A stretch of 64,000 nucleotides of DNA from a virus (Duplodnaviria; Heunggongvirae; Uroviricota; Caudoviricetes), in IMG/VR virus record IMGVR_UViG_3300021475_000005; one strand, 5' to 3'. Shown one piece after another: positions 3,344 through 48,294 of the stretch. The notes below the pieces were generated by a model. The model saw nothing but the letters and a program-made list of their open reading frames with translations, ran no database searches and was not told where the DNA came from. How positions within the stretch are numbered: position 1 is the first letter of the stretch; each line of letters starts with the position of its first letter. Both the position numbers and the translations under genes were made by a program.

Positions 3344-4555
3344 ATGCAGACGATCCAAGGCCACCACGGGGGCCTTATCAAGGCATGGGTAGACGGAGTT
3401 GAGTTTGAGGAATCGGCTCAACGACAGGTCCATAATCTCGCCGCGATGCCGTTCATTCATAAGCATGTCGCGATCATGCCGGATTGCCATGCGGGAATCG
3501 GTGCAACGGTTGGATCGGTTTTTGCGACCCGTGGCGCTGTCATACCCGCAGCCGTGGGCGTCGATATTGGCTGCGGTATGGCCGCGATTAGAACGTCCCT
3601 GACGGCGTCCGATCTGCCGGATAGCCTCCACGACCTTCGTTGCAATATCGAGCGTACGGTGCCGCATGGCGGTCTTGGACCATCCTCGGGATGGGGCGGC
3701 AAACCGGGTGGTATTCCGAACTCCGTCAAAAGTCGATGGAATACGCTGGAGCCGAGATTCAAGAATCTCTGTGAACGCTATCCGGCATTGGAAAATGAGA
3801 ATCACCTCATTCATCTCGGCTCGCTGGGCGGCGGAAATCATTTCGTCGAGGTCTGCCTCGATACCGAACAACGTGTTTGGGTCATGTTGCATTCTGGCTC
3901 TCGCGGCATCGGGAACAAGATCGGACGCATGTTTACCGAGAGCGCCCGTGAAATGCTTGGTAAACGAATTGGACATCATTATGTCCCCGACAAAGACCTC
4001 GCATGGTTCGAGGAAGGTGAGCAGCAGTTCGACGATTATATCGAGGCCATGCTTTGGGCGCAGGATTTTGCGGCTGAAAATCGTAAAGCCATGATGGAGC
4101 GCACGCTCAATGTGATGCGTACGCATTTCCCCGGCTTCACGACTGATAAGCACGCCGTCAACTGCCATCACAATTTTGCGCAGAAAGAACGTCATTTCGA
4201 TGCCGATGTATGGGTCGCGCGTAAGGGTGCGGTCGAAGCAACGCAGGGAAAGCTTGGCATCATCCCCGGCTCGATGGGCGCGAAATCATTCATTGTTCGC
4301 GGGCTTGGGAATCCCGAATCCTTTAACTCGTGCAGCCACGGAGCCGGTCGCCGTATGTCGCGGGGCGCTGCAAAGAAAACCTTTTCCCTCCAAGATCACG
4401 AGATTGCGACCGCTGGCGTCGAATGCCGCAAGGATGCAGGCGTGATCGACGAGACTCCGGGATGTTACAAAGACATTGATGCCGTGATGGCAGCACAATC
4501 CGATCTCGTTGAGATCGTCGCCACCCTTAAACAAGTTCTCTGCGTCAAAGGCTAA
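3344..4555 (+). CDS. rtcB: RNA ligase RtcB (3'-phosphate/5'-OH RNA-splicing ligase)
   Basis: 403-aa ORF containing the RtcB metal- and GTP-binding motifs: MPDCHAGIGATVGS, GGGNHFVE, HNFAQKE and NSCSHGAGR. Confidence 0.85.
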   Translation: MQTIQGHHGGLIKAWVDGVEFEESAQRQVHNLAAMPFIHKHVAIMPDCHAGIGATVGSVFATRGAVIPAAVGVDIGCGMAAIRTSLTASDLPDSLHDLRCNIERTVPHGGLGPSSGWGGKPGGIPNSVKSRWNTLEPRFKNLCERYPALENENHLIHLGSLGGGNHFVEVCLDTEQRVWVMLHSGSRGIGNKIGRMFTESAREMLGKRIGHHYVPDKDLAWFEEGEQQFDDYIEAMLWAQDFAAENRKAMMERTLNVMRTHFPGFTTDKHAVNCHHNFAQKERHFDADVWVARKGAVEATQGKLGIIPGSMGAKSFIVRGLGNPESFNSCSHGAGRRMSRGAAKKTFSLQDHEIATAGVECRKDAGVIDETPGCYKDIDAVMAAQSDLVEIVATLKQVLCVKG

Positions 4556-5959: not shown

Positions 5960-6456
5960 TGCGCACAGTCCCTATCTCGGTTCTTCAAGAACGCTATATC
6001 TACAATCCAGAGACCGGGAAGATTTCTGCACGCATCAAACTCGGCAAGAAAGATATCGGCGAAGAGGTCGGTACGATCAACCACGACGGCTACATCGTTT
6101 TGAAAGTCAGTTATGATGGACGCCGCACTCAGATCGCAGGGCATGTTCTAGCATGGACATTGTTCTATGGAGAGTATCCTGAATTCGATGTCGATCATCG
6201 TGATACAGTTCGAACCAATAATCGAATCGACAATCTGAGAAATGCAACGCGATCCCAAAATCTCGCCAATCGAAATCATGTTGGTGAACTGCCGCGCGGC
6301 GTCACGAGGACGAAGAATAAAAACCGTCCCTATCAAGCTCAAATACAGTGGGAAGGTAAGAAGCGCTATCTCGGCAGTTTTGCCGATCCCATGGATGCAC
6401 ACGCAGCATATGTGAAAGAAGCAACTCTCGTTTTTGCGGATTTCGTCAGGATATAA
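5959..6456 (+). CDS. HNH homing endonuclease with AP2 DNA-binding domain
   Basis: An HNH motif (DHRDTVRTNNRIDNLRNATRSQN) is followed by an AP2-like segment (YQAQIQWEGKKRYLGSFADPMDAHAAY). Confidence 0.7.
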   Translation: MRTVPISVLQERYIYNPETGKISARIKLGKKDIGEEVGTINHDGYIVLKVSYDGRRTQIAGHVLAWTLFYGEYPEFDVDHRDTVRTNNRIDNLRNATRSQNLANRNHVGELPRGVTRTKNKNRPYQAQIQWEGKKRYLGSFADPMDAHAAYVKEATLVFADFVRI

Positions 6457-6462
6457 CAATCC

Positions 6463-6744
6463 ATGAAGAAAGCATACCGCGAGGCTTTGCTTCAAGTTGC
6501 GAAATTTAACATATTCGGCAATGCATTCCATTTAACCCAAAGACCAAAAACCATGGCAAAACTTGAAGTTATGGGATTGGTGGAAAAACGAAAGGTAAAA
6601 GTTCTTGGATATCCCTGTGAAACTTGGTTCGTCACAAAAGACGGAAAAGAAGCGCTCGCGCAAATCAAAGAAGAATACGGAGTCTCAGTCTACGGCAAGA
6701 ACCGCCCAAGGCTTAAACATCGACGCGGTCGAGGAAAAGTATAA
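6463..6744 (+). CDS. hypothetical protein
   Basis: 93-aa ORF. It overlaps the start region of the next ORF by 140 nt in a different frame. Confidence 0.35.
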   Translation: MKKAYREALLQVAKFNIFGNAFHLTQRPKTMAKLEVMGLVEKRKVKVLGYPCETWFVTKDGKEALAQIKEEYGVSVYGKNRPRLKHRRGRGKV

Positions 6745-7639
6745 CGCAAAATATGTCGGGCAGTACGATCTCCCGTCAAGTCGTGGACCGTATCTGATCT
6801 TCTATGTGGAAAACCCCGATACGTCGAAGGGACACGACAATTATTTTGCTCTACGCCGTGGGATGGGCCTGACATCGAAAGGCGCATTCGGCTGGACCGA
6901 TTCTGTCACCATATTCAATGGTAAAGGAATCAGAGATTCAGAATGGGCAGCCATTTTGCTTGAAGACGACACCTTTCTGGTTTCACGCTGGCACCACGAT
7001 TATGTAACAGGGCCGCGCGGAGAAATGTTGGATGGCGGCTCCGACTACACAAGATACAATCTTGAATTTCCACCAACGCATAAAATGAAGATCATCGACG
7101 GAAAGGAAGTCTTTACACCCGTGCCACCAAGAGAACCGAAAGTCAAAAACGACGAAGACTTTGAGAACCTCGATCTTACACCAGAACAAACCAAGCTTGA
7201 AGACTGGTACGGATATGGCCTGAATGGCGTCTCTGGTATTATGTACGATGTCGGCGAATTCCATCTTGCGTGCGATCAACCGGTTCGCTACAAACCGGCG
7301 CTTCCTACCGCCGATGAAGCGGCACTTCGTTTGCGGCTGATCACCGAAGAGTTCGAAGAAACCAAGCGTGCAATCGAAACCGGTGACATCGTCGAAGTCG
7401 CGGATGGGCTTGCAGACCTCATCTATGTGATTGCAGGTACCGCATTGGTTTACGGTCTGCCATTGGATGAAGTATGGAGCGAAGTCCACGATTCTAATAT
7501 GGCAAAAGTCGATCCTGAGACCGGAAAAGTTTTGAAACGAGCAGACGGCAAGATTTTAAAAAGACCCGGTTGGACACCTCCAGATATCAAAACCGTTCTT
7601 GGATTATTTAGCGATGACACAGCATCCGACGCAGCTTAA
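6605..7639 (+). CDS. MazG-like nucleotide pyrophosphohydrolase domain protein (start uncertain)
   Basis: The C-terminal about 140 aa carry an EExxE / EVADGLADLIYV pattern typical of the MazG/HisE all-alpha NTP pyrophosphatase family. The first 50 codons overlap the previous ORF, so the true start may be internal (for example the GTG at 6806). Confidence 0.5.
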   Translation: MDIPVKLGSSQKTEKKRSRKSKKNTESQSTARTAQGLNIDAVEEKYNAKYVGQYDLPSSRGPYLIFYVENPDTSKGHDNYFALRRGMGLTSKGAFGWTDSVTIFNGKGIRDSEWAAILLEDDTFLVSRWHHDYVTGPRGEMLDGGSDYTRYNLEFPPTHKMKIIDGKEVFTPVPPREPKVKNDEDFENLDLTPEQTKLEDWYGYGLNGVSGIMYDVGEFHLACDQPVRYKPALPTADEAALRLRLITEEFEETKRAIETGDIVEVADGLADLIYVIAGTALVYGLPLDEVWSEVHDSNMAKVDPETGKVLKRADGKILKRPGWTPPDIKTVLGLFSDDTASDAA

Positions 7640-8153
7640 CGATATAGGGCGTGCGATTCAATTTGCACTCGACCGCCACAAGGGACAGCTTTATGCCGGG
7701 CTACCCTATGTCTATCATCTTTCTCGTGTTGCATTTGCCTGCGGCGATTTCGGTTATATTGATCCAGTGCATCAGTCAGCTTGTTGGCTGCACGATGTTG
7801 TCGAAGATACCGAAACATCTATCGAGACTGTGATCAAAGAGTTCGGTATCGAGGTCGGGCGTCATGTTTGGGCGTGTACCGGCATTGGAGAGAATCGAAA
7901 AGAACGCAATCTCGACATCTCAAGAAAACTTCTCGCTTTTCCGAAGGGATGTATCGTAAAGGCTTCGGATCGTATCGCAAATCTCGAAGCATGCATTCTC
8001 GATCCCGGGACAGGGCAACCCAATCGCGAACTCGCTGGAATGTATCTCAAGGAGCGCACAGATTTCATCGATTTGATGCGTGGCTGCATTCCTGATCCAA
8101 TGTTAACGCGCCTTAACCACGCTTTCGACGAATTGACTCATATCGTGCCTTAG
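7614..8153 (+). CDS. HD-domain hydrolase, RelA/SpoT-type (small alarmone hydrolase-like)
   Basis: Contains HKGQ, YVYHLSRVA and WLHDVVEDTETSIETVIKEFG. This matches the SpoT/Mesh1 HD signature (H...HD..ED). Confidence 0.65.
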   Translation: MTQHPTQLNDIGRAIQFALDRHKGQLYAGLPYVYHLSRVAFACGDFGYIDPVHQSACWLHDVVEDTETSIETVIKEFGIEVGRHVWACTGIGENRKERNLDISRKLLAFPKGCIVKASDRIANLEACILDPGTGQPNRELAGMYLKERTDFIDLMRGCIPDPMLTRLNHAFDELTHIVP

Positions 8154-8185
8154 AACCATTCTAAATTGCGGCTGGCTCCCAGAGG

Positions 8186-8214
8186 TTGACAATGCATAAA
8201 ATCCTCGTTAGGTT
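8186..8214 (+). promoter_or_regulatory. putative sigma70-like promoter
   Basis: TTGACA, then a 17-nt spacer, then TAGGTT, located in the intergenic region upstream of the small ORF at 8243. Confidence 0.25.
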
Positions 8215-8242
8215 GTAAGCTGCAATCGATGGGGAGGGTTTG

Positions 8243-35941: not shown

Positions 35942-36557
35942 TCCAGCGTGGTCTATGGCGCAGAGTGATTTTCATAGTAAAGGCGGGATGGTCGAAGAGA
36001 TCGGAGCGGCTCTTTGCGCAGTCCCACTCATGGCGACACAGAAATGCAACAAGGCCTTTTTGTTCTTCCATCAATTTCAATGCATGGCGAGCAGCCTTCT
36101 CCGCATCTTTTCCATATGGTGGATTTGTAATAATCGCGTCTGGAGTAAAACCTTTTAAAGCCGTAACCCAATCCAGCGTAGTCGCATCATTCCATGTCGC
36201 GTTATCAGGATCGGGATGAGCAGCACGCCACGCATTATAACGTTCGGTCGCTTCAGCTTGCGTGACGAACTGGAAGAAATCGAACAGACCGTCCGGATCG
36301 AATCCCGGATAGGCTTTAATATCTGTCGAGACAAGGTTGCGTGCATCTCCCATACGTTTGGAAATGGCACCGTCGCCGCAGAACGGCTCCCATACTTGAT
36401 ATGACGGCAGATCGTCGGCGATGACTTCGAAAAGAGAGTCGATGGCAGAATCTGGGGTCGGGTAAAAATCTAAGGGAACACGCTCATATGCAGATGTTCC
36501 CATCATTGAGGGGTCTTTTCGACCCGAGTCGCTTAGGGGCATGGCCGGAATGTACAT
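35832..36557 (-). CDS. DNA N6-adenine (or N4-cytosine) methyltransferase, NPPY class. Orphan; I see no adjacent endonuclease candidate.
   Basis: Motif I (VWEPFCGDGA) and motif IV (ITNPPYGK). Confidence 0.65.
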   Translation of the reverse strand: MYIPAMPLSDSGRKDPSMMGTSAYERVPLDFYPTPDSAIDSLFEVIADDLPSYQVWEPFCGDGAISKRMGDARNLVSTDIKAYPGFDPDGLFDFFQFVTQAEATERYNAWRAAHPDPDNATWNDATTLDWVTALKGFTPDAIITNPPYGKDAEKAARHALKLMEEQKGLVAFLCRHEWDCAKSRSDLFDHPAFTMKITLRHRPRWIAGSDGAPRFPYSWFIWNFTKAYLAPHARPELVYAK

Positions 36558-36853
36558 TTGTAGGTGGCCGCGTCAAGGATTCCAGCATTATCGGTCGGAA
36601 TCCCTGACTCATATATTTCCTTGACATTTCCATATCAGTTTGATCTAGTTCATTGATGCCCCATGTTTCCCCAGCTTGGCTTTTCGCTTACGCAATGTTC
36701 GCGCTGATTGAAACCTGCGAGACGCAAAATCGAAAATTCTTTGATAACTGGCGGGCGCTCGCGAGGTTGCTGCCTTATTGAAGGCCTCGCAAGTTTCATC
36801 TTGCGGGGACTGACTTCTTTCGATACCTTTCCATCTTCTGTCCTGATGCCAGA

Positions 36854-38347: not shown

Positions 38348-38576
38348 CATCGGCATAACGAGTCCATATATACGACATAATATCGATTCGCTCCGCTGGC
38401 TGACTGGTAAAGCAGCGATCTCTAAAATCGCCTATGTCGGTTCAAACCCGACGCGGGGCACCAATGAAAGTTGTACAATGTTTCCGGAACACGACGATTA
38501 GCTAGTCCACGTACGAGGACCGCCTGTCCTGTTGTCAAAACATTCGTAATGACAACAATCTAATAGGACAGAAAAT

Positions 38577-38990
38577 ATGACACCTTTCAAATCACACCAA
38601 CTCAAGATCAAAACCGTTTCGCTCGGCCTCGAAGGCGCACTCATTCATCGCGAAGAGTGCAAGATCAAGGATCAGATCGAACGTGCAAAGCTTTCTGAGA
38701 ACCCTCAGAAAGATGCATGGCTTGTGCGCCTGCGGGCAACCCGCGACAGCCTCCGCGAACACCGGAAGGCCGTCGTGCGTCCCTATACGCGTAATGCCAT
38801 CCTCGCCTACGGATTTCTCCGGGGACGTACTTATACCCAGATGGAACCTAAGCGCTATACCAATCCGGACTGGGCTCAGATCGAGCGCATGATCCTAAAA
38901 CATGGTCGATATGCTGGGCTTCCAACCGATCTTCTCCAGACTTTCGAACGTTGGAAGCAGGAAGCTGGCGAGGTTTCCAAGCGTTCCTAA
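38577..38990 (+). CDS. hypothetical protein
   Basis: 137-aa ORF. Confidence 0.4.
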   Translation: MTPFKSHQLKIKTVSLGLEGALIHREECKIKDQIERAKLSENPQKDAWLVRLRATRDSLREHRKAVVRPYTRNAILAYGFLRGRTYTQMEPKRYTNPDWAQIERMILKHGRYAGLPTDLLQTFERWKQEAGEVSKRS

Positions 38991-39478
38991 TGCGAACTAA
39001 GAAAACCACGCTCGAACTGTTTCACGAAAAATATATTGTCGATCCCGTAACAGGATGCTGGCAATGGCAGGCCGGAACATGCGGGCGTGGTTATTCAAAA
39101 ATAGGGTATACGCGTCCAGATGGCACGCGTAGGACAGTTGGTGCTTATAAATGGATCATGGAGCAAATTCATGGACCAATTGCTCCCGGCTATGAACCCG
39201 ATCATTTATGTCGAAACAAATTATGTGTAAATCCAGATCATATGGAGATTGTAACACGCGCCGAAAATAATAGAAGACGTGTTGCGGCTTATCGGGAGAA
39301 TGGCAAGGAAATGCATTGGAAACTGCGTGCGAGTGGGAAATGCCGAGAAGGGCATGAAATGACGCCAGAAAATACTATTGATAAGAAAGACGGTACAAGA
39401 ACATGCCGGACATGCCGCCAAAAATTCCAGAGAAAATGGCTGGCTGCCAAAAAATCAAAGCTTGACAGGGCTGCCTAG
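38990..39478 (+). CDS. HNH homing endonuclease
   Basis: Contains DHLCRNKLCVNPDHMEIVTRAENN, followed by a Cys/His cluster. Confidence 0.7.
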   Translation: MRTKKTTLELFHEKYIVDPVTGCWQWQAGTCGRGYSKIGYTRPDGTRRTVGAYKWIMEQIHGPIAPGYEPDHLCRNKLCVNPDHMEIVTRAENNRRRVAAYRENGKEMHWKLRASGKCREGHEMTPENTIDKKDGTRTCRTCRQKFQRKWLAAKKSKLDRAA

Positions 39479-39490
39479 TGTCGGTATAAG
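39462..39490 (+). promoter_or_regulatory. strong sigma70-like promoter feeding the RNA locus
   Basis: TTGACA (39462-39467), a 17-nt spacer, then TATAAG (39485-39490). It overlaps the stop codon of the HNH gene. Confidence 0.45.
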
Positions 39491-39496
39491 CGACAG

Positions 39497-39562
39497 ATGA
39501 TTGCTGTAAAAAGCGGTCGGTAAGTCGTGGCAAGACCCCGGTTCGAATCCGGGCATCTCCAC
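39497..39562 (+). ncRNA. tRNA 3'-half-like element (T-arm plus acceptor 3' strand plus ACCA) without a matching 5' acceptor strand. A tRNA remnant or tRNA-like RNA.
   Basis: cccgg-TTCGAAT-ccggg forms a perfect T-arm. It is followed by catctcc-a-cca. The complementary ggagatg is not present upstream. Confidence 0.35.
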
Positions 39563-40557
39563 CAAAAGCGCCTCGCCGCCTTTAATGGGCCGAAAGCCAC
39601 GGGTAGCAGTGTCAGGGGTGCTTCTGAGGGGGATGATTTGGGACTCGATTGTCAGGCGAAGCGATTGACGCAGCACGGACTTATCTCCGGGTAGCTTCCA
39701 CTACCGCTCGATTAAACGACAGAAATGTCAACGACAACGAGCCGATGGCTCTTCGTCTCGCGGCCTAATTAGCTGCGGAGGCCTTTCGGGTGGTGCAGGC
39801 GGCAACAGGAAGCACCACCCAACTTGATATTTTCGCCTGACCTCGACTGAGGTGTTGCAACACTGCTAAGTCGGAGCTAATGGCGGAATGTGGGGAAGCT
39901 GAGAGGTCGTGCAAATCGATCCATCCTCGATATCCGGGGACGCGTAGTGCAAGGTGGACCGAAGCGGTTATCGAAAGCCGCCCTGACAGTTGAGATCAGG
40001 CGAAAGTATCAAATTCAGCGCTTGCGCTGATCCTGTGACGGTGACCTTTTAAAACCCCGTTGGGGTATTATCTCGCAAGCGAGATCGAGAGGATCGAAAG
40101 TTACGAGCGAAGTCCATCGCTCTAGCACGGGAAAACGGACAACGAATTGTGTCGAAAGACACATAGCCACGATAAGATATGGGCAGGAAGGCCGTAACTC
40201 CTGTGTGGCGCAAACGGTAGCGAATTTGGGCACTCTGCGAGCCCTAAGCTAGATGGAAACGTCCGCCGTTTAATTGACGGCTGAGCTTAGAAGGTACGGA
40301 GTGACCCAAAAGTCATCGCCGGATAGTGCTTGTCTCTATCTTGGGTTGGTGCAGGAAGGCCGTTCCTGTATGACGCAAACGGTCGCGTTTTTGAAGCGAG
40401 GTGACTGGAGGTAGTACCAGTCTGGTTTCATAAGCCAGCAAATTAGGTCGGTGCAAGTCCGATCCTCGCAACCAAATTTGTAACACAGTTTGGAGGTCTC
40501 ATTAAGGTGAGATCGAGCTATTCGGAAGGATAGCTTCCGTGTTACAAACCTTATATC
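39563..40557 (+). ncRNA. candidate large structured noncoding RNA(s): an ORF-poor, hairpin- and GNRA-tetraloop-rich region
   Basis: Roughly 1 kb with no convincing ORF. Hairpin features: many short perfect hairpins (for example gtc-GAAA-gac, cctc-gact-gagg, ggtggtgc/gcaccacc) and a 12-nt perfect palindrome gtgttgcaacac. Repeat: a related internal copy gcaggaaggccgt..cgcaaacggt at about 40172 and 40352. The region is flanked by tRNA elements. Confidence 0.4.
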
Positions 40558-40594
40558 GTCCCGTAGCTTAGTTGGTCCTCTGCTCATAACCAGT
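40558..40594 (+). pseudogene. partial duplicate of the downstream tRNA-Met (5' acceptor/D region plus anticodon loop, with a 7-nt deletion)
   Basis: gtcccgtagcttagttggtcc + tctgctcataac is identical to the corresponding parts of the tRNA at 40675 but lacks aaagcca. It does not fold into a cloverleaf. Confidence 0.5.
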
Positions 40595-40595
40595 T

Positions 40596-40664
40596 TGTAA
40601 GGCCATATTTAGGGTCTCATCATGGTGAGATTGAATCATTCGTGAGGATGATTTTCGGCCTTAC
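40596..40664 (+). ncRNA. three-way-junction RNA-like structured element
   Basis: An 8-bp closing stem (gtaaggcc/ggccttac) encloses two hairpins (tctca..tgaga and atcat..atgat). Confidence 0.3.
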
Positions 40665-40674
40665 AATTTAATAT

Positions 40675-40752
40675 AGTCCCGTAGCTTAGTTGGTCCAAAG
40701 CCATCTGCTCATAACGGATTGATCGTGCGTTCGAATCGCACCGGGACAACCA
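40675..40752 (+). tRNA. tRNA-Met (anticodon CAU; could alternatively be lysidine-modified tRNA-Ile2)
   Basis: Manual cloverleaf: acceptor agtcccg/cgggaca, D-stem gctt/aagc, anticodon stem atctg/cggat with loop CTCATAA, variable loop tgatc, T-arm gtgcg-TTCGAAT-cgcac, discriminator A and an encoded CCA. Confidence 0.7.
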
Positions 40753-40776
40753 TTTACAACCTGTCCAGAATGAAGT

Positions 40777-40811
40777 AGACCCGTGTCCGTAACTCCGACA
40801 CGGGTCTTTTC
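40777..40811 (+). terminator. rho-independent terminator-like hairpin after the RNA locus
   Basis: agacccgtgtc..gacacgggtct forms a stem followed by TTTT. The downstream gene starts 3 nt later without a Shine-Dalgarno sequence. Confidence 0.55.
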
Positions 40812-40813
40812 AC

Positions 40814-41272
40814 ATGGGCATGTCAGCAAGCGGCATCATCGCATTCGGAATTCCTCTCGACGAGGATGATGCTCTCTTTCCGGAAATCGAAGAAGGCGAC
40901 GATCCTGAATACGCTTCAGGATTCAGCGAAGAGAATTTTGAAAAATGGATCGCCGAACAAGCCGGGATCATTGCGCCGCAAGAAGAATGGGTGCAAGGGA
41001 GCAAGAACACGGCATGGTCTTATTATTGGGACAGGCAACGTAAAGCTGTCGCCGAATTTCCTATCGAGGTCGTCGCACACTGTTCGTGCGATTATCCGCT
41101 TTATATCATAGCGCTACGTGGGACCGTCATGAAGGCATGGGATGGGGAGCCCAGAGATATCATGCTGCCCTCGATCCCGGCTGAGAAAGTACAGATGCTC
41201 ATTGATTTCTGCGCAGAGCATGGAATCAAGGGCGCAGCGCCACGCTGGCTACTGACGAGTAACTGGGGCTGA
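40814..41272 (+). CDS. hypothetical protein
   Basis: 152-aa ORF with an acidic N-terminus. Confidence 0.45.
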   Translation: MGMSASGIIAFGIPLDEDDALFPEIEEGDDPEYASGFSEENFEKWIAEQAGIIAPQEEWVQGSKNTAWSYYWDRQRKAVAEFPIEVVAHCSCDYPLYIIALRGTVMKAWDGEPRDIMLPSIPAEKVQMLIDFCAEHGIKGAAPRWLLTSNWG

Positions 41273-41365
41273 TTAGGTCGCGAAGGCGCTACGGGTCACC
41301 GCTGCGGCTGCACGGGTGCCTGTGATCGCGGTTGCGGCGATCATAAGGACAACGACTGCAAACAT
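41273..41365 (-). CDS. small hydrophobic peptide (30 aa). Below the ORF-track cutoff.
   Basis: MFAVVVLMIAATAITGTRAAAAVTRSAFAT, with an AAGGA ribosome-binding site upstream. It sits downstream of the SNF2 gene on the same strand. Confidence 0.3.
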   Translation of the reverse strand: MFAVVVLMIAATAITGTRAAAAVTRSAFAT

Positions 41366-41464
41366 GGGAGAATCCTTTTTGGTTATGTTGCAATGCAACA
41401 TACCATAATGAGTCCTGAATGCAAGGATTACTATTCACAAATCTGGACAGGTCTGCTATGCAAA

Positions 41465-43336
41465 TTAGCTGTCCAGAATGCGGTCGATGTTCTCTTCCTT
41501 CATCTGAGATGACTGTGCGATACGGCAATCCAATGATCCGTCTGCGACTAGGAAGTAGCCCATAAGCGCGGCAGCAAGCTGACCAATCCTACAAATACGG
41601 TCAAATGCTTGAATCAATTTGCTTGGAACCCAATCGCCTTCCACGAATGCCACGTCTTTTGCACGTGTGAGCGTATATCCCACACCACCTGCATCAATAT
41701 TCAGAATAATAACGCGGCAGGATTCATCATCCTGAAATTTATCGACTTCGGCTTGACGTTTGTGTGGTGGCGTACCACCCCAAATTACGGCTGGATTGTA
41801 TTTCCTAAGTTCTTCGGCGAGTCCTTTAACAACATCTGTGTGATATGCGAAGACGACAAGCTTATCGCCGCCATCAAGAAAATCCTTAATCCATGGAACG
41901 GTCGCTGACATTTTGGCGAGCCCGAGATCGCGGCGCACCGTTGCGATCTGCTCGAAGATAATCTGGATTTCTGGAACTTGGAGACCTGTAATCGCAGCAA
42001 TATAATCCACATCGAGCTTACTGAAATTGGGTTTATCAGGATCACCGAGCGCAGCATCCAGTCCCATGAGGCGTGCGCGTTCTACAACCATCGTTCCGAT
42101 AGCCGCATCCCGTTCGTGTTCTTCTTCAATCCCCTTAAGGATCGTATTTTCGTAAAGACCGAGAGCTTGAGTTAGCTCGTCTTCCTTCATGACGAGAGCA
42201 CGAATATCCGGAGAATCGATGATGATGACGCGGCGCTGCTTTTCGGGAAGATCGGATTGCACCTCGGAGCGCAATCGGCGAATCATGAAAGCTTCACGTA
42301 GTTTTTGTCCGAGTTCTTCCTGATAGGATGCACCCAAGACATTCAGCGCGCCTTTCGGACCTCGACTAGAATCGAAGAATGCATCACAATAGCGATAAAC
42401 AAATCTGAGATAGTCTTTACCAAGTCCTTCGGGATCAAACGCTTGGACCATGGGCCAAAGTTCGATAGGCCGGTTCATGATCGGGGTGCCGGTGAGGAAG
42501 AGACGACGCAGTGCGGCAATAGGTTCGTAGCGAACGCGTTTCTTGAACGTGCGCCCATTGATCTCCGACTCTTCAAGGCGAGTACCGCCGAGTACGTGGA
42601 GCGTACGACTGGAGTCTATGGTTTTTAGAGCATGCGCTTCGTCACAAATAAGCAAGTCCCACGTATGACCTTTGATTTTATCTGCGAAGCGTTCAAGAAT
42701 ATGATAATTAATAACAACGACATCGGTATTAGGCCAGAAATCAGGCTCTTCAATCCACTTATACTTATTCTTTCCGTTTTTGTACGTCCCGACTCTAATA
42801 AGTTCTTTTCGTTTTGCCTCAGCAATTCCGACACTGACGTTACGTGTCTTCCAAAGATCAAATTCACGTTTCCAGTGAATCTTCAATCCTGCCGGAGAGA
42901 CGATCAAAACTTGCCTGATCTTCTCATCGGCATTGAACAACAAAATGCCTTGTAGTGTCTTGCCTAAACCGGGCTGATCGGCGATCAGCGCATCTGTCCG
43001 TGGCAGGCAATATTCGACGCCCGCATCCTGATAACGAAACGGTTCTAGCTGTTTACCGGTGACGGGGTGGATTTTATTCGGAACCGGACTTCTAAAGTCC
43101 GTAGTATCCGCATACGACATTTTCGCGGAGAGTTCGGCTTGTGCAGCTTTCTCTTCAACGTGTCGTAATGCACGATCAGTCCATGGGACTTTGACTTGCT
43201 CGGCTAGTACCTGATCGGTGGTGATCCAGCATTTACGGACGGCAGATCGCGTGAATCCAGCTTTCTTCCAGATTTCACGTTCTTCGTAAGTGCCGATGCC
43301 GCAGAAATAGCCGTCTTTATAATCGAGATGAGCCAT
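41465..43336 (-). CDS. SNF2-family DNA helicase/translocase
   Basis: DEAH box (LLICDEAHALK), DQPGLGKT, and a helicase-C region (FLTGTPIMNRPIELW ... DAGGVGYTLTRA). Confidence 0.75.
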   Translation of the reverse strand: MAHLDYKDGYFCGIGTYEEREIWKKAGFTRSAVRKCWITTDQVLAEQVKVPWTDRALRHVEEKAAQAELSAKMSYADTTDFRSPVPNKIHPVTGKQLEPFRYQDAGVEYCLPRTDALIADQPGLGKTLQGILLFNADEKIRQVLIVSPAGLKIHWKREFDLWKTRNVSVGIAEAKRKELIRVGTYKNGKNKYKWIEEPDFWPNTDVVVINYHILERFADKIKGHTWDLLICDEAHALKTIDSSRTLHVLGGTRLEESEINGRTFKKRVRYEPIAALRRLFLTGTPIMNRPIELWPMVQAFDPEGLGKDYLRFVYRYCDAFFDSSRGPKGALNVLGASYQEELGQKLREAFMIRRLRSEVQSDLPEKQRRVIIIDSPDIRALVMKEDELTQALGLYENTILKGIEEEHERDAAIGTMVVERARLMGLDAALGDPDKPNFSKLDVDYIAAITGLQVPEIQIIFEQIATVRRDLGLAKMSATVPWIKDFLDGGDKLVVFAYHTDVVKGLAEELRKYNPAVIWGGTPPHKRQAEVDKFQDDESCRVIILNIDAGGVGYTLTRAKDVAFVEGDWVPSKLIQAFDRICRIGQLAAALMGYFLVADGSLDCRIAQSSQMKEENIDRILDS

Positions 43337-46790: not shown

Positions 46791-47612
46791 GGCGAGAAAG
46801 ATTTTCTCCATATAGCGCATAGCGCGTTTATGCGCCACAACGAGAAGATTCGTTCGTGTAAGTTCGTAGACTTTCCGCGCATCATAGATTGCACGATAGT
46901 GTCCGGCTTCCGACAACACTTCACCTGTTTCTTCATCGACACGTGCGCTCTGGGCTTTAAACAAAGCTTGTCCGATATTCCAACTAACCGAGCGACGGGT
47001 GGGATTGTAACCGTGTGCGATCCATGTCGCGCTTGTCGCGCCTTCACCGGGCGCACCTTGACGCTTGCCGTCGATCACAGCGAGCCCGAGGCGTTTCCAG
47101 AGTTTTGAGACAGTCGTGTACTTCGTGAGATCACCACACTCGCCGACAATCTGTGCAAGACCGAAGGAACCAAACCCACGAATATCTTTTCCCCACTCAC
47201 GCCAGACTGGCAAAGTCTCCGCAAGCTTTGTCATGGCAAATTCTTTGTCGTCTCGCAGATCGATCATCGGCTGCACCGCATTCGCATTCGTGATGGCTAC
47301 TCGATGCGTCGGGTGACTAGGATCGACGAGTGCATCTTTGATAACTTTTTTCGCTTGGGCATAAGCCTTCTTGAGCGCCGGTTTATCATTGGGATCGGAT
47401 TTGAGAACGTGAAAGACAATGAGAGATTCACAAGCACGTTCTAACCTAGCCTGCTGCTTTAACGCAAAACGTGCTTCACGATGATAGCCGATAATTTCGC
47501 GAATAAGGTCTTCCTGATTCGTCGGAACTTTGATGTCGGAAGACTTTCGGCGTTTTGATTTAACTTTTGTTTCAGGCGTTTCCATTTGATGTCTTTCCGA
47601 GAACGAGTTCAT
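46638..47612 (-). CDS. protein with an IS110 C-terminal (Transposase_20, HhH-like) motif. No DEDD N-terminal domain is recognisable.
   Basis: IRGFGSFGLAQIVGECGDLTKYTTVSKLWKRLGLAV parallels the IPGIGxxxAxxLxAExGDxxRFxxxxxLxAYAGLxP block of IS110-family transposases. The last about 50 codons run into the repeat array. Confidence 0.35.
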   Translation of the reverse strand: MNSFSERHQMETPETKVKSKRRKSSDIKVPTNQEDLIREIIGYHREARFALKQQARLERACESLIVFHVLKSDPNDKPALKKAYAQAKKVIKDALVDPSHPTHRVAITNANAVQPMIDLRDDKEFAMTKLAETLPVWREWGKDIRGFGSFGLAQIVGECGDLTKYTTVSKLWKRLGLAVIDGKRQGAPGEGATSATWIAHGYNPTRRSVSWNIGQALFKAQSARVDEETGEVLSEAGHYRAIYDARKVYELTRTNLLVVAHKRAMRYMEKIFLADLWSAWRQANRSVKPTDQLPDARACDGSDPDNHEPLHKSVATVVPELEAA

Positions 47613-48294
47613 CCTTTACTTCATTCATCGCACATTCGATCTCGTCATTGCTGAAGAGGGTGCCAAGTTCTGCAAAGGGATCGGCGACGCGCGAATAACG
47701 CCGAGAAAGGTTTTCACACAAAGCACCTTCAAATTTTCCGCGTGTCGCGAGCGTTTTAAGTTCGTGCCAGCGCACCTTCCCGATAGGACGGCCATCGAGC
47801 ATCTTATAGGATTCGAGAATTCTCCCGGCACTTGCATCTGCTGCTTCGAAACGGGCAGCGCGGCGGTAGTGTTCGGAGACGCGGATAGGTTTCGGCTGAG
47901 AAGGCGCACATTGGATACGGGGTTCAATCTTGCGCAGGCTCTCCCTCTCAGCCAAGGAGTCGGAGACAGCCGCCGTTTGGAGTTCATATGGTTTTTGGTC
48001 TCCGTCGCCATCACTGGCGAAAATTTGGGAGGCAGCGCCATTCTGGGTTTCAGACGATGTCTGGCCTCCCTCGATCTTGCGACCGAATCTCATGTCTTCA
48101 GCAACTTCGCGTAGGTAATCCAATTCAAGTTCGATTAACAAACTCTCGTCCTCCATAATCATTCTATGGAATTCGCGACGGGCAGCAAACGCGTTTTTGG
48201 ATACCTTACTCAATGCATTCGAAGCAGCCATGTAAAGAGAAGCCGGGGCATCCATTCCGATCTGCTGAAGTTCGGGCTTTATCGAGCGAGACAT
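47572..48294 (-). CDS. hypothetical protein
   Basis: Taken from the internal Met (MSRSIKPELQQIG), which avoids overlapping the upstream gene. Confidence 0.35.
   Translation of the reverse strand: MSRSIKPELQQIGMDAPASLYMAASNALSKVSKNAFAARREFHRMIMEDESLLIELELDYLREVAEDMRFGRKIEGGQTSSETQNGAASQIFASDGDGDQKPYELQTAAVSDSLAERESLRKIEPRIQCAPSQPKPIRVSEHYRRAARFEAADASAGRILESYKMLDGRPIGKVRWHELKTLATRGKFEGALCENLSRRYSRVADPFAELGTLFSNDEIECAMNEVKDELVLGKTSNGNA

Follow-up and report, generated by a model that had tools for sequence, protein, structure and literature searches.

A probable stable-RNA operon with a structured, putatively functional spacer in a phage related to Caulobacter phage phiCbK

What occupies a stretch of 1.3 kb in which an otherwise densely coding phage genome seems to encode no protein? 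The stretch lies at positions 39479-40813 of a 64,000-nucleotide (nt) piece of viral DNA (IMG/VR record IMGVR_UViG_3300021475_000005; hereafter the window), between the stop codon of an HNH endonuclease gene at 39478 and the ATG of the next gene at 40814. The original prediction proposed that it encodes one large structured noncoding RNA (ncRNA), possibly of the GOLLD or ROOL class. The lack of open reading frames (ORFs) on which that proposal was based holds, the longest ORF within 39479-40813 being 83 amino acids (aa) on the minus strand, and the gene calls on an identical public contig show the same gap. Roughly half of the region is made of known gene types, namely a permuted transfer-messenger RNA (tmRNA), two tRNAs with a CAU anticodon, and a tRNA pseudogene. 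We propose, with a probability of about 0.7, that the region is a single stable-RNA operon of a phiCbK-related phage with a structured, putatively functional spacer. Our best guess is that this spacer is not inert.

The comparisons that follow draw on a thinly sampled lineage. The closest relative, L020 (SNF2 helicase 90% identical), is alignable over the whole region; in L023, whose helicase is 62% identical, only the 3' part of the region is represented; and L006, a 225-kb viral contig whose helicase (its L030 locus) is 53% identical, has the same layout, with ~1.6 kb from the tmRNA to the next gene. Exact-protein look-ups also led to two contigs, L002 and L003, that duplicate the window exactly and are hence uninformative. 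A helicase-profile scan and further look-ups added relatives of the phiCbK, CcrBL10, CcrRogue, CcrSC, and CcrBL9 types and two metagenomic contigs.

By gene identity, positions 39502-39819 of the plus strand are a circularly permuted (two-piece) tmRNA gene, as judged from sequence models. The Rfam family RF04321 (tmRNA_permuted) scored 86.5 bits (gathering score, 47) over 39502-39768, RF01849 (alpha_tmRNA) scored 53.7 bits (gathering score, 50) over 39458-39819, and ARAGORN called a tmRNA of the permuted type. The pieces stand in permuted order, the acceptor piece (T-arm, 3' acceptor strand, and CCA at 39562-39564) lying upstream of the coding piece, with an intervening segment at ~39565-39628. 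The coding piece starts at ~39629 with GGGGAUG, which pairs with CAUCUCC and includes a G3.U70 pair, the mark of alanine identity. The tag ORF (39727-39768) translates cleanly, in the Rfam register, as VNDNEPMALRLAA followed by a stop, with the hydrophobic end in AA of such tags, and similar tags are found in L006 (VANDNEPEALRFAA, by ARAGORN) and in L028 (VNDNEPAMAVAA, read by eye). The 3' pseudoknot hairpin of the tmRNA extends to 39819, and its T-arm carries compensatory changes relative to L020. ARAGORN itself gave the tag AEAFRVVQAATGSTTQLDIFA and a gene end at 39931 (call over 39472-39931 of the window), both of which are probably mistaken; by the Rfam register and by homology, the tag is VNDNEPMALRLAA and the gene ends near 39819. 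The first ~350 nt of the region are therefore a tmRNA gene that the original prediction overlooked, and the "tRNA 3'-half-like element" that it listed without coordinates is most likely the acceptor piece (T-arm, acceptor strand, and CCA) ending at 39564. The L028 locus, which came from a tag-pattern search and is devoid of the pseudoknot modules described below, has a permuted phage tmRNA recognized by eye at ~640-940 of its minus strand, where ARAGORN made no call. The tmRNA and tRNA parts of the locus are already known for phiCbK-like phages, in which tmRNA genes have been reported (e.g., PMC13459779).

The tRNA-Met (CAU) announced by the original prediction is present at 40675-40752 of the plus strand, found by both ARAGORN and the Rfam tRNA model (54.8 bits), with an A1xA72 mismatch. 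A second CAU tRNA, overlooked at first, lies at 40395-40474 of the same strand and is noncanonical. It was undetected by default ARAGORN and by Rfam, while relaxed-threshold ARAGORN calls both it and its L023 homolog tRNA-Met. It has a complete cloverleaf, with a 7-bp acceptor stem containing a 1x72 mismatch, D, anticodon, and T arms, a 7-nt anticodon loop, and a 3' CCA (ACCA end). It departs from the canonical nucleotides in that its T-loop is UGCAAGU instead of UUCRANY, its variable loop has 8 nt instead of 4 to 5, and nucleotide 26 is missing. Compared with L023, the 21 pairs of the cloverleaf are 100% paired, 10 of them changed on both sides, and all loops are conserved, against 29 to 50% pairing in slid controls. 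Owing to this covariation and loop conservation, 40395-40474 is taken to be the counterpart of the first of two CAU tRNAs seen throughout the phage group, and it shows that conserved phage tRNAs can escape default tRNA finders. A DNA pattern search for the tRNA-like D-arm gave 0 matches.

Directly upstream of the tRNA-Met stands a Y-shaped three-way junction, a 72-nt module with a 10-bp closing stem and two hairpins, one of them GNRA-looped. The window holds two plus-strand copies, ~75% identical to each other, at 40470-40557 (copy 1; closing stem, 40477-40486/40539-40548; hairpins, 40495-40514 and 40515-40536, the latter with the GNRA loop) and at 40588-40674 (copy 2; closing stem, 40595-40604/40657-40666), and L020 holds one. 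Over these three copies the 27 pairs are 100% paired with 10 double changes, a result that none of 500 shuffles equaled, and slid controls reach 32 to 47%. All four helix substitutions between copy 2 and L020 keep pairing and, since their kinds (C-G to U.G and G.U to A-U) pair in plus-strand RNA only, they constitute a plus-strand signal. Our best guess is that the module is held in shape by selection; a DNA pattern search for it returned one chance-like match (L029). Between the two copies, at 40558-40590 of the plus strand, lies the partial tRNA-Met duplicate of the original prediction, a pseudogene comprising the 5' half of the tRNA through the anticodon loop with a 7-nt deletion (direct repeat D6). 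The 118-nt unit formed by copy 1 and this truncated half is absent from L020, and the partial tRNA-Met is thus the debris of a tandem duplication.

The signals at both ends of the region fit one transcription unit. A sigma-70-type promoter (39462-39490, plus strand), with TTGACA at 39462-39467, a 17-nt spacer, and TATAAG at 39485-39490, was read from the sequence and overlaps the 3' end of the HNH gene. The original prediction had assigned it to one large RNA; the promoter is there, and it serves as the promoter of the tmRNA itself. In L020 both hexamers are unchanged and every substitution falls between them; comparable TTGACA-17-TATAnn sites lie upstream of the tmRNA in L006 and L028, phiCbK has TTGACA at the same place, and the Rfam alpha_tmRNA model aligns across the promoter. 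Our promoter scan skips the TATAAG site solely because it accepts only -10 hexamers that end in T. At the other end, the predicted terminator was found as a terminator-like hairpin at 40777-40810 (plus strand, read from the sequence), with an 11-bp G+C-rich stem (40777-40787/40797-40807), a 9-nt loop, and UUUU. It is kept in L020, where one loop substitution extends the stem, and our terminator scan omits it because it has only 4 U. Inside the region, the scans found nothing like a terminator or promoter on the plus strand. We infer that the region is one cotranscribed unit, given its conserved promoter and the lack of such internal signals.

The same arrangement recurs in related phages. The order tRNA-Cys, tmRNA, spacer, CAU tRNA, spacer, CAU tRNA, a few genes, and helicase is common to seven loci (phiCbK, L006, L031, L034, L035, L036, and L112), and CcrBL10 (L032) and CcrRogue (L033) have the same parts, the sole difference being a tRNA-Cys on the opposite strand. 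The locus belongs to a phage distantly related to Caulobacter phage phiCbK. The genes of the window include those for a family A DNA polymerase, ribonucleotide reductase, SNF2 helicase, gp30.3, a DNA transfer protein, and an HNH endonuclease; its closest annotated relatives are phiCbK-like Caulobacter phages, with a DNA polymerase identity of 63%, and blastn found no match to the region among 50,697 phage records. Altogether, the shared gene order, the conserved promoter, the lack of internal signals, and helix covariation argue for the operon. The tmRNA and tRNA identities, the tandem duplication, and the helix-level covariation in four elements are direct observations.

We propose a model in which a single sigma-70-type promoter would drive a transcript comprising the tmRNA, a ~575-nt folded spacer (39820-40394), the first CAU tRNA, the Y-shaped leader in two copies, the tRNA-Met, and the terminator-like hairpin. 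Host RNase P, RNase E/III, and 3' exonucleases would presumably release the mature tmRNA pieces and the tRNAs from this transcript. The spacer would begin with a long hairpin (D1), followed by a few variable hairpins and by a ~300-nt domain around two pseudoknot modules, the first of which is contained in a segment called domain A. Domain A and the Y-shaped module would most likely serve as cis-acting scaffolds for folding or processing, and they may in addition survive as stable by-products, RNAs that bind a partner related to translation.

The density of hairpins reported in the original prediction is indeed beyond chance. The minimum free energy (MFE) of the plus strand over 39815-40680 is -327.6 kcal/mol, against -271 +/- 6 for shuffles (z = -9.0), and the minus strand reaches z = -4.5; for the core alone (39820-40394), z is -4.9 and 0 of 100 shuffles are equally stable. 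About 20 substitutions separate the alignable spacer positions from L020, most of which keep pairing, and several fit plus-strand RNA only. Together, the difference between the strands and these G.U-compatible kinds of substitution point to a plus-strand RNA. Comparison of the window with L020 shows entire hairpins exchanged or lost between intact flanks. Of the large structured ncRNA first proposed, a plus-strand, noncoding, structured locus among phage tRNA genes stands, part of it without a family; it is not one ~1.3-kb RNA.

D1 (39821-40015, plus strand), delimited by inverted repeat I1 and the MFE fold, follows the tmRNA directly. The arms of its base helix are 29 nt long and 86% complementary, and its branched 137-nt interior contains a T-loop-like hairpin (GGUCG-UGCAAAU-CGAUC) and the perfect 12-nt palindrome noted earlier (gtgttgcaacac, at 39852-39863). 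D1 is 100% identical in L020. In L023 the D1 helix stands at the same place around a different, 50-nt interior, and 16 aligned pairs are 97% paired with 4 double changes, a level of pairing that 27 of 500 shuffles matched. All phiCbK-like relatives have a covarying 24-bp hairpin right after the tmRNA, with 13 pairs showing double changes. A covariance model of this hairpin built from six relatives (R1) gave at most 3.8 bits in the window with filters off, and 11.9 bits in L023 with the best match on the wrong strand, so that homology of D1 to the phiCbK-type hairpin is not supported; the two resemble each other only in position and in a shared UUUCG...CGAAA core. The next segment (40015-40097, plus strand), defined by comparison with L020, comprises a small hairpin (40015-40030) and a variable hairpin stretch; in L020, a different and shorter hairpin (GAAGAUUGCAAGUAAUCUUC) takes the place of 40031-40097 between near-identical flanks.

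Domain A (40105-40227, plus strand) has six helices that are paired in the window, in L020, and in L006 (3382-3518). It comprises a hairpin Ha (GAGCG/CGCUC, loop AAGUCCAU), a closing helix Px (GAAUU/AAUUU), a GNRA hairpin Hc, an outer helix Hd (GCCAC/GUGGC), and an inner hairpin S1 (CAGGA/UCCUG), whose loop GGCCGU can pair with a downstream ACGGU in a predicted pseudoknot, S2. With nhmmer, 40059-40227 of the window aligns to 3362-3517 of L006 (E = 2e-6). Ha has 3 double changes against L006 and 1 against L020, and Hd has 2, in an anchor-based, script-checked alignment that was used in place of a MAFFT/RNAalifold alignment of the window with L006, in which hairpins were misplaced. Our best guess is that domain A, too, is held in shape by selection. 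Between the modules, a middle hairpin domain (40228-40304, plus strand) of nested helices (40231-40303) with GAAA and other loops is predicted from the MFE fold; against L020, one substitution keeps its pair (40236/40298, U.G to U-A) and two helix-end pairs are broken. The second module, copy B (40305-40394, plus strand; 70 bits with our module model R2), has the same invariant core within an outer helix GUCAU/AUGAC and holds an optional hairpin at 40322-40340. In L020 this outer helix has become GCCAU/GUGGC and is still paired, and the 21-nt hairpin is absent. All four module copies have a fully (100%) paired outer helix, in which 4 of the 5 pairs show double changes, and the core is 22 nt long and invariant. 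The two related internal segments of the original prediction were recovered as exact 12-mers at 40184-40195 and 40352-40363, where 0.26 would be expected by chance.

Further copies of the module were sought in several ways. Over 883 kb of related phage DNA, model R2 found no further real copy; its marginal matches in L037 and L063 have no inner hairpin, and that in L037 lies in apparent coding sequence. DNA patterns for the module core, searched in viral, metagenome, and genome collections, gave L006 as the sole real match, those in Nitrospira and Janthinobacterium being a terminator and coding sequence. A helicase-anchored search of viral contigs with a single sequence found nothing; an alignment-based helicase search returned 80 loci, of which only L030 to L037 were relevant, with the pseudoknot modules in none but L006's own contig. 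Among the extra contigs with helicase homologs (L110 to L114), one has the standard layout without the modules and the others are without the RNA locus, and with the 152-aa neighbor as search anchor, the matches were itself and L020 only. A search of the window for an antisense target of the invariant core gave none that was convincing.

Several points weigh against an operon with a functional spacer. The distance from the tmRNA to the first tRNA is 90 to 275 nt in most relatives, ~290 nt in L023, ~500 nt in L020, 575 nt in the window, and ~1,600 nt in L006; the spacer is not a conserved feature of the phage group, being absent or very different in most relatives. The L028 tmRNA, which has the same tag core, is directly followed by a protein gene and not by tRNAs. 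The spacer is 90 to 100% identical to L020 per 100 nt, over a background of 75 to 85%, and the coding block at 36000-36600 is as similar; recent recombination may explain this near-identity. Conservation relative to L020 was accordingly dropped as a sign of constraint, the identity profile having other near-identical blocks, a coding one included. Four spacer substitutions relative to L020 break predicted pairs, and S1 and S2 are invariant in all copies, which leaves the inner hairpin and the pseudoknot stem with no covariation signal. The long-range helices of the spacer, such as 40131-40137/40386-40392, are predicted from folding energy, and only 2 to 4 independent sequences stand behind each element. 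The equivalent 1.6-kb spacer of L006, for which Rfam gave no family, is no more stable than its shuffles (z = -0.6). Finally, the cotranscription and the cleavage of the operon are themselves inferred.

Could the spacer instead be a large RNA in its own right, as first suggested? Searches with the Rfam and ARAGORN models did find a tmRNA and tRNAs; they found no GOLLD, ROOL, or group I/II intron. All 4,227 Rfam families were run over 39800-40690 at E<=10, and no family was obtained for 39820-40394; across the searches of the window, the region, and the core at E<=10, 39820-40674 gave chance-level matches only. The GOLLD model (RF02032, which describes a universally conserved 3' domain; gathering score, 150) had no match in the window at the gathering score and none in the region at E<=1 or E<=10, and the same model finds the GOLLD of phiCbK at 165.3 bits. 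ROOL, OLE, HEARO, raiA, group I/II introns, and RNase P, which we presume to be among the 4,227 families, had no match at E<=10 over 39800-40690. Membership in the GOLLD, ROOL, or intron families is thus rejected, since the Rfam models are unmatched while the GOLLD control works in phiCbK. A new RNA class could be conceived for 39820-40394 and for the Y-shaped leader module only.

One tentative alternative, which we hold to be unlikely, is that 39820-40394 is an autonomous large ncRNA of a new class, released from the operon and acting in trans, e.g., on ribosomes or tRNAs, as a counterpart of GOLLD and ROOL. It is just as doubtful that this RNA takes the role that GOLLD has beside the phiCbK tmRNA, with the Y-shaped leader as a second new motif. 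The core is indeed 575 nt long, ORF-free, and stably folded (z = -4.9), with many GNRA hairpins, a repeated pseudoknot module, a tRNA directly at its 3' end, and insertions and deletions at hairpin tips like those of large RNAs. Moreover, domain A is kept with compensatory changes in L006, where the surrounding noncoding DNA is no longer alignable, and phiCbK has GOLLD beside its tmRNA while the window is without it. GOLLD and ROOL usually lie near tRNA islands, and GOLLD sometimes contains a tRNA (PMC12286853). Nevertheless, only ~125 to 170 nt are common to L006 and the D1 helix alone is common to L023, so that the relatives have no overall architecture in common; comparative support is found for no closing helix or long-range pair, the L006 region as a whole is not unusually stable, the searches for more module copies described above gave none, and the conservation in L020 possibly comes from recombination. 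A new large RNA class is not demonstrated. With so small a set of sequences, domain A and the Y-shaped module may be scaffolds acting in cis, stable RNAs set free from the transcript, or portions of a new large RNA. A functional analogy to GOLLD is possible, because phiCbK keeps GOLLD beside its tmRNA and such RNAs lie near tRNA genes (PMC12286853).

Alternatively, and in our view rather improbably, the spacer may be functionless filler, made of debris from tRNA and tmRNA duplications and of tolerated hairpins, with its likeness to L020 due to recent recombination. Duplication debris is clear in the dead tRNA-Met half and in the 118-nt unit absent from L020; T-loop-like hairpins are scattered in the spacers of both the window and L006, a 15-nt stretch is common to the spacer and the 3' part of the tmRNA (repeat D3), the spacer length varies hugely among relatives, and the identity profile is a mosaic. 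Filler of this kind is hard to reconcile with Y-shaped copies that are ~75% identical yet keep 27 of 27 pairs with 10 double changes, or with a domain A that keeps all its helices and the invariant 22-nt core over deep divergence. The mostly pairing-preserving substitutions relative to L020 and a folding far beyond that of shuffles also speak against it.

That the tmRNA coding piece continues at its 3' end through the spacer, with D1 and both pseudoknot modules remaining attached in place of the PK2-PK4 arc, seems to us very doubtful. D1 begins within two nucleotides of the last tmRNA helix in the window and in L023, and every phiCbK-like relative has the covarying 24-bp hairpin there. Like PK2-PK4 of one-piece tmRNA, the pseudoknot-like modules follow the tag, and in sequence there is a weak resemblance to the tmRNA 3' pseudoknot (repeat D3). 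Against this, the Rfam tmRNA models stop at 39819, the covariance model of the relatives' hairpin fails to recognize D1, and the modules are missing from L028 and most relatives; to our knowledge, a coding piece of ~750 nt would be unprecedented. The base helix of D1 can also be compared with the RNase III processing stems of rRNA operons and of phage T7 early transcripts, since its 29-nt, 86% complementary arms stand exactly at the border of two mature RNAs. Unlike such stems, D1 has a 137-nt interior that is 100% identical in L020, beyond what a simple processing stem needs, although recombination may also explain this identity. A decayed protein-coding gene is effectively refuted: short ORFs only were found and nothing speaks for it, eight ORFs tested from the region gave nothing against Pfam at E<=1, about half of the region consists of identifiable RNA genes, and the substitutions are paired helix changes and not codon-like.

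The operon is most readily placed beside that of the phiCbK-like cluster (Dolichocephalovirinae), with which it shares the gene order, a site a few genes from the SNF2 helicase, a permuted tmRNA with a ...NDN...AA tag, a long hairpin after the tmRNA, and two downstream CAU tRNAs. It differs from the cluster in its 575-nt spacer (mostly 90 to 275 nt there) with pseudoknot modules, its noncanonical first CAU tRNA, the HNH gene against the promoter, and DNA that aligns to no deposited phage by blastn; moreover, phiCbK and L006 have a permuted tRNA-like element where the window has the Y-shaped module. GOLLD and ROOL are large, ornate, ORF-free phage RNAs that typically lie near tRNA genes, some with an internal tRNA or pseudo-tRNA and an HNH gene nearby (PMC12286853, PMC6582537). 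Unlike them, the 575-nt core of the window is unmatched at E<=10, has neither the conserved 3' domain nor a global architecture common to relatives, and looks modular rather than like one closed fold. In phiCbK itself (L001, NC_019405), the GOLLD match (165 bits) lies at 6289-6775 of the minus strand with an embedded tRNA-Gly(UCC) and divergently adjoins the permuted tmRNA (7254-7693, plus strand), and neither appears there in the feature table of the record. At its gathering score, GOLLD was not found in the CcrBL10-, CcrRogue-, CcrSC-, and CcrBL9-type loci.

Small stable RNAs are also encoded in the tRNA cluster of phage T4 (species 1 and 2, rnaC/rnaD), where they are single molecules of ~120 to 140 nt processed out with the tRNAs. 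Like the elements of the window, and compared with them by description only, they are structured RNAs of unknown function encoded within a phage tRNA operon; T4 belongs to another phage group. YrlA and other Y RNAs carry tRNA-mimicking modules in bacteria and phages (PMC4201824). In phiCbK, a subthreshold YrlA match (29.7 bits; gathering score, 69) lies at 8148-8215 between the two CAU tRNAs, in the slot of the window's Y-shaped module, and reads by eye as a permuted arrangement of T-arm, closed stem, and D-arm; a similar-looking element occupies the same slot in L006 (~4469-4552). In YrlA, a permuted tRNA-like domain with T-arm and D-arm stands on a long Ro60-binding stem, and the RNA is encoded close to a Ro60 gene. 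In the region, the YrlA model (RF02553) had no match at E<=10, and the Y-shaped module has neither a T-loop nor a D-loop; no search was made for a Ro60 (TROVE) gene.

Our analysis presents the ~125-nt pseudoknotted domain and the Y-shaped tRNA-leader module as candidate new RNA motifs, both having compensatory changes and no family. Large or unusual RNAs seem to gather at the site next to the phage tmRNA, namely GOLLD and a Y-RNA-like match in phiCbK, the pseudoknotted domain in the window, and the 1.6-kb spacer in L006. If such RNAs were functionally interchangeable, the locus would offer a genetic handle on the function of GOLLD-type RNAs. Given the tiny sample, these ideas on the motifs and the locus are a lead and not a result.

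Several observations concern the surroundings of the locus. The HNH endonuclease gene (38951-39478) abuts and overlaps the tmRNA promoter and has no counterpart in L020; of the RNA parts, the neighboring tmRNA acceptor piece with its intervening loop has diverged most from L020 (78 to 80%), with the compensatory changes in the T-arm. This arrangement fits a free-standing homing endonuclease that may target the adjoining tmRNA sequence. Blocks of 93 to 100% identity to L020, over the background of 75 to 85%, occur at 36000-36600, 38400-38700, 41200-41500, and 46900-47900, including within a methyltransferase-like gene, which indicates probable mosaic recombination between these phages. The SNF2 helicase of L020 (L020 4840-7755) has 971 aa, ~350 more than its 623-aa ortholog in the window, and the insert, with a faint LAGLIDADG_3 match, appears to be an intein. 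In L006, a 108-aa ORF at 4017-4380, just upstream of the tRNA-Met, lies between two copies of a 26-nt direct repeat (gatggtgcaaggccatcgacagaatt) that contains a T-loop-like hairpin, and looks like an insertion into the RNA operon. Finally, the window has at 38390-38463 a tRNA with a CUA anticodon (amber suppressor; labeled tRNA-Pyl by ARAGORN; Rfam tRNA, 57.7 bits), which is kept in L020 (10156-10229) and could serve stop-codon suppression or recoding in this phage.

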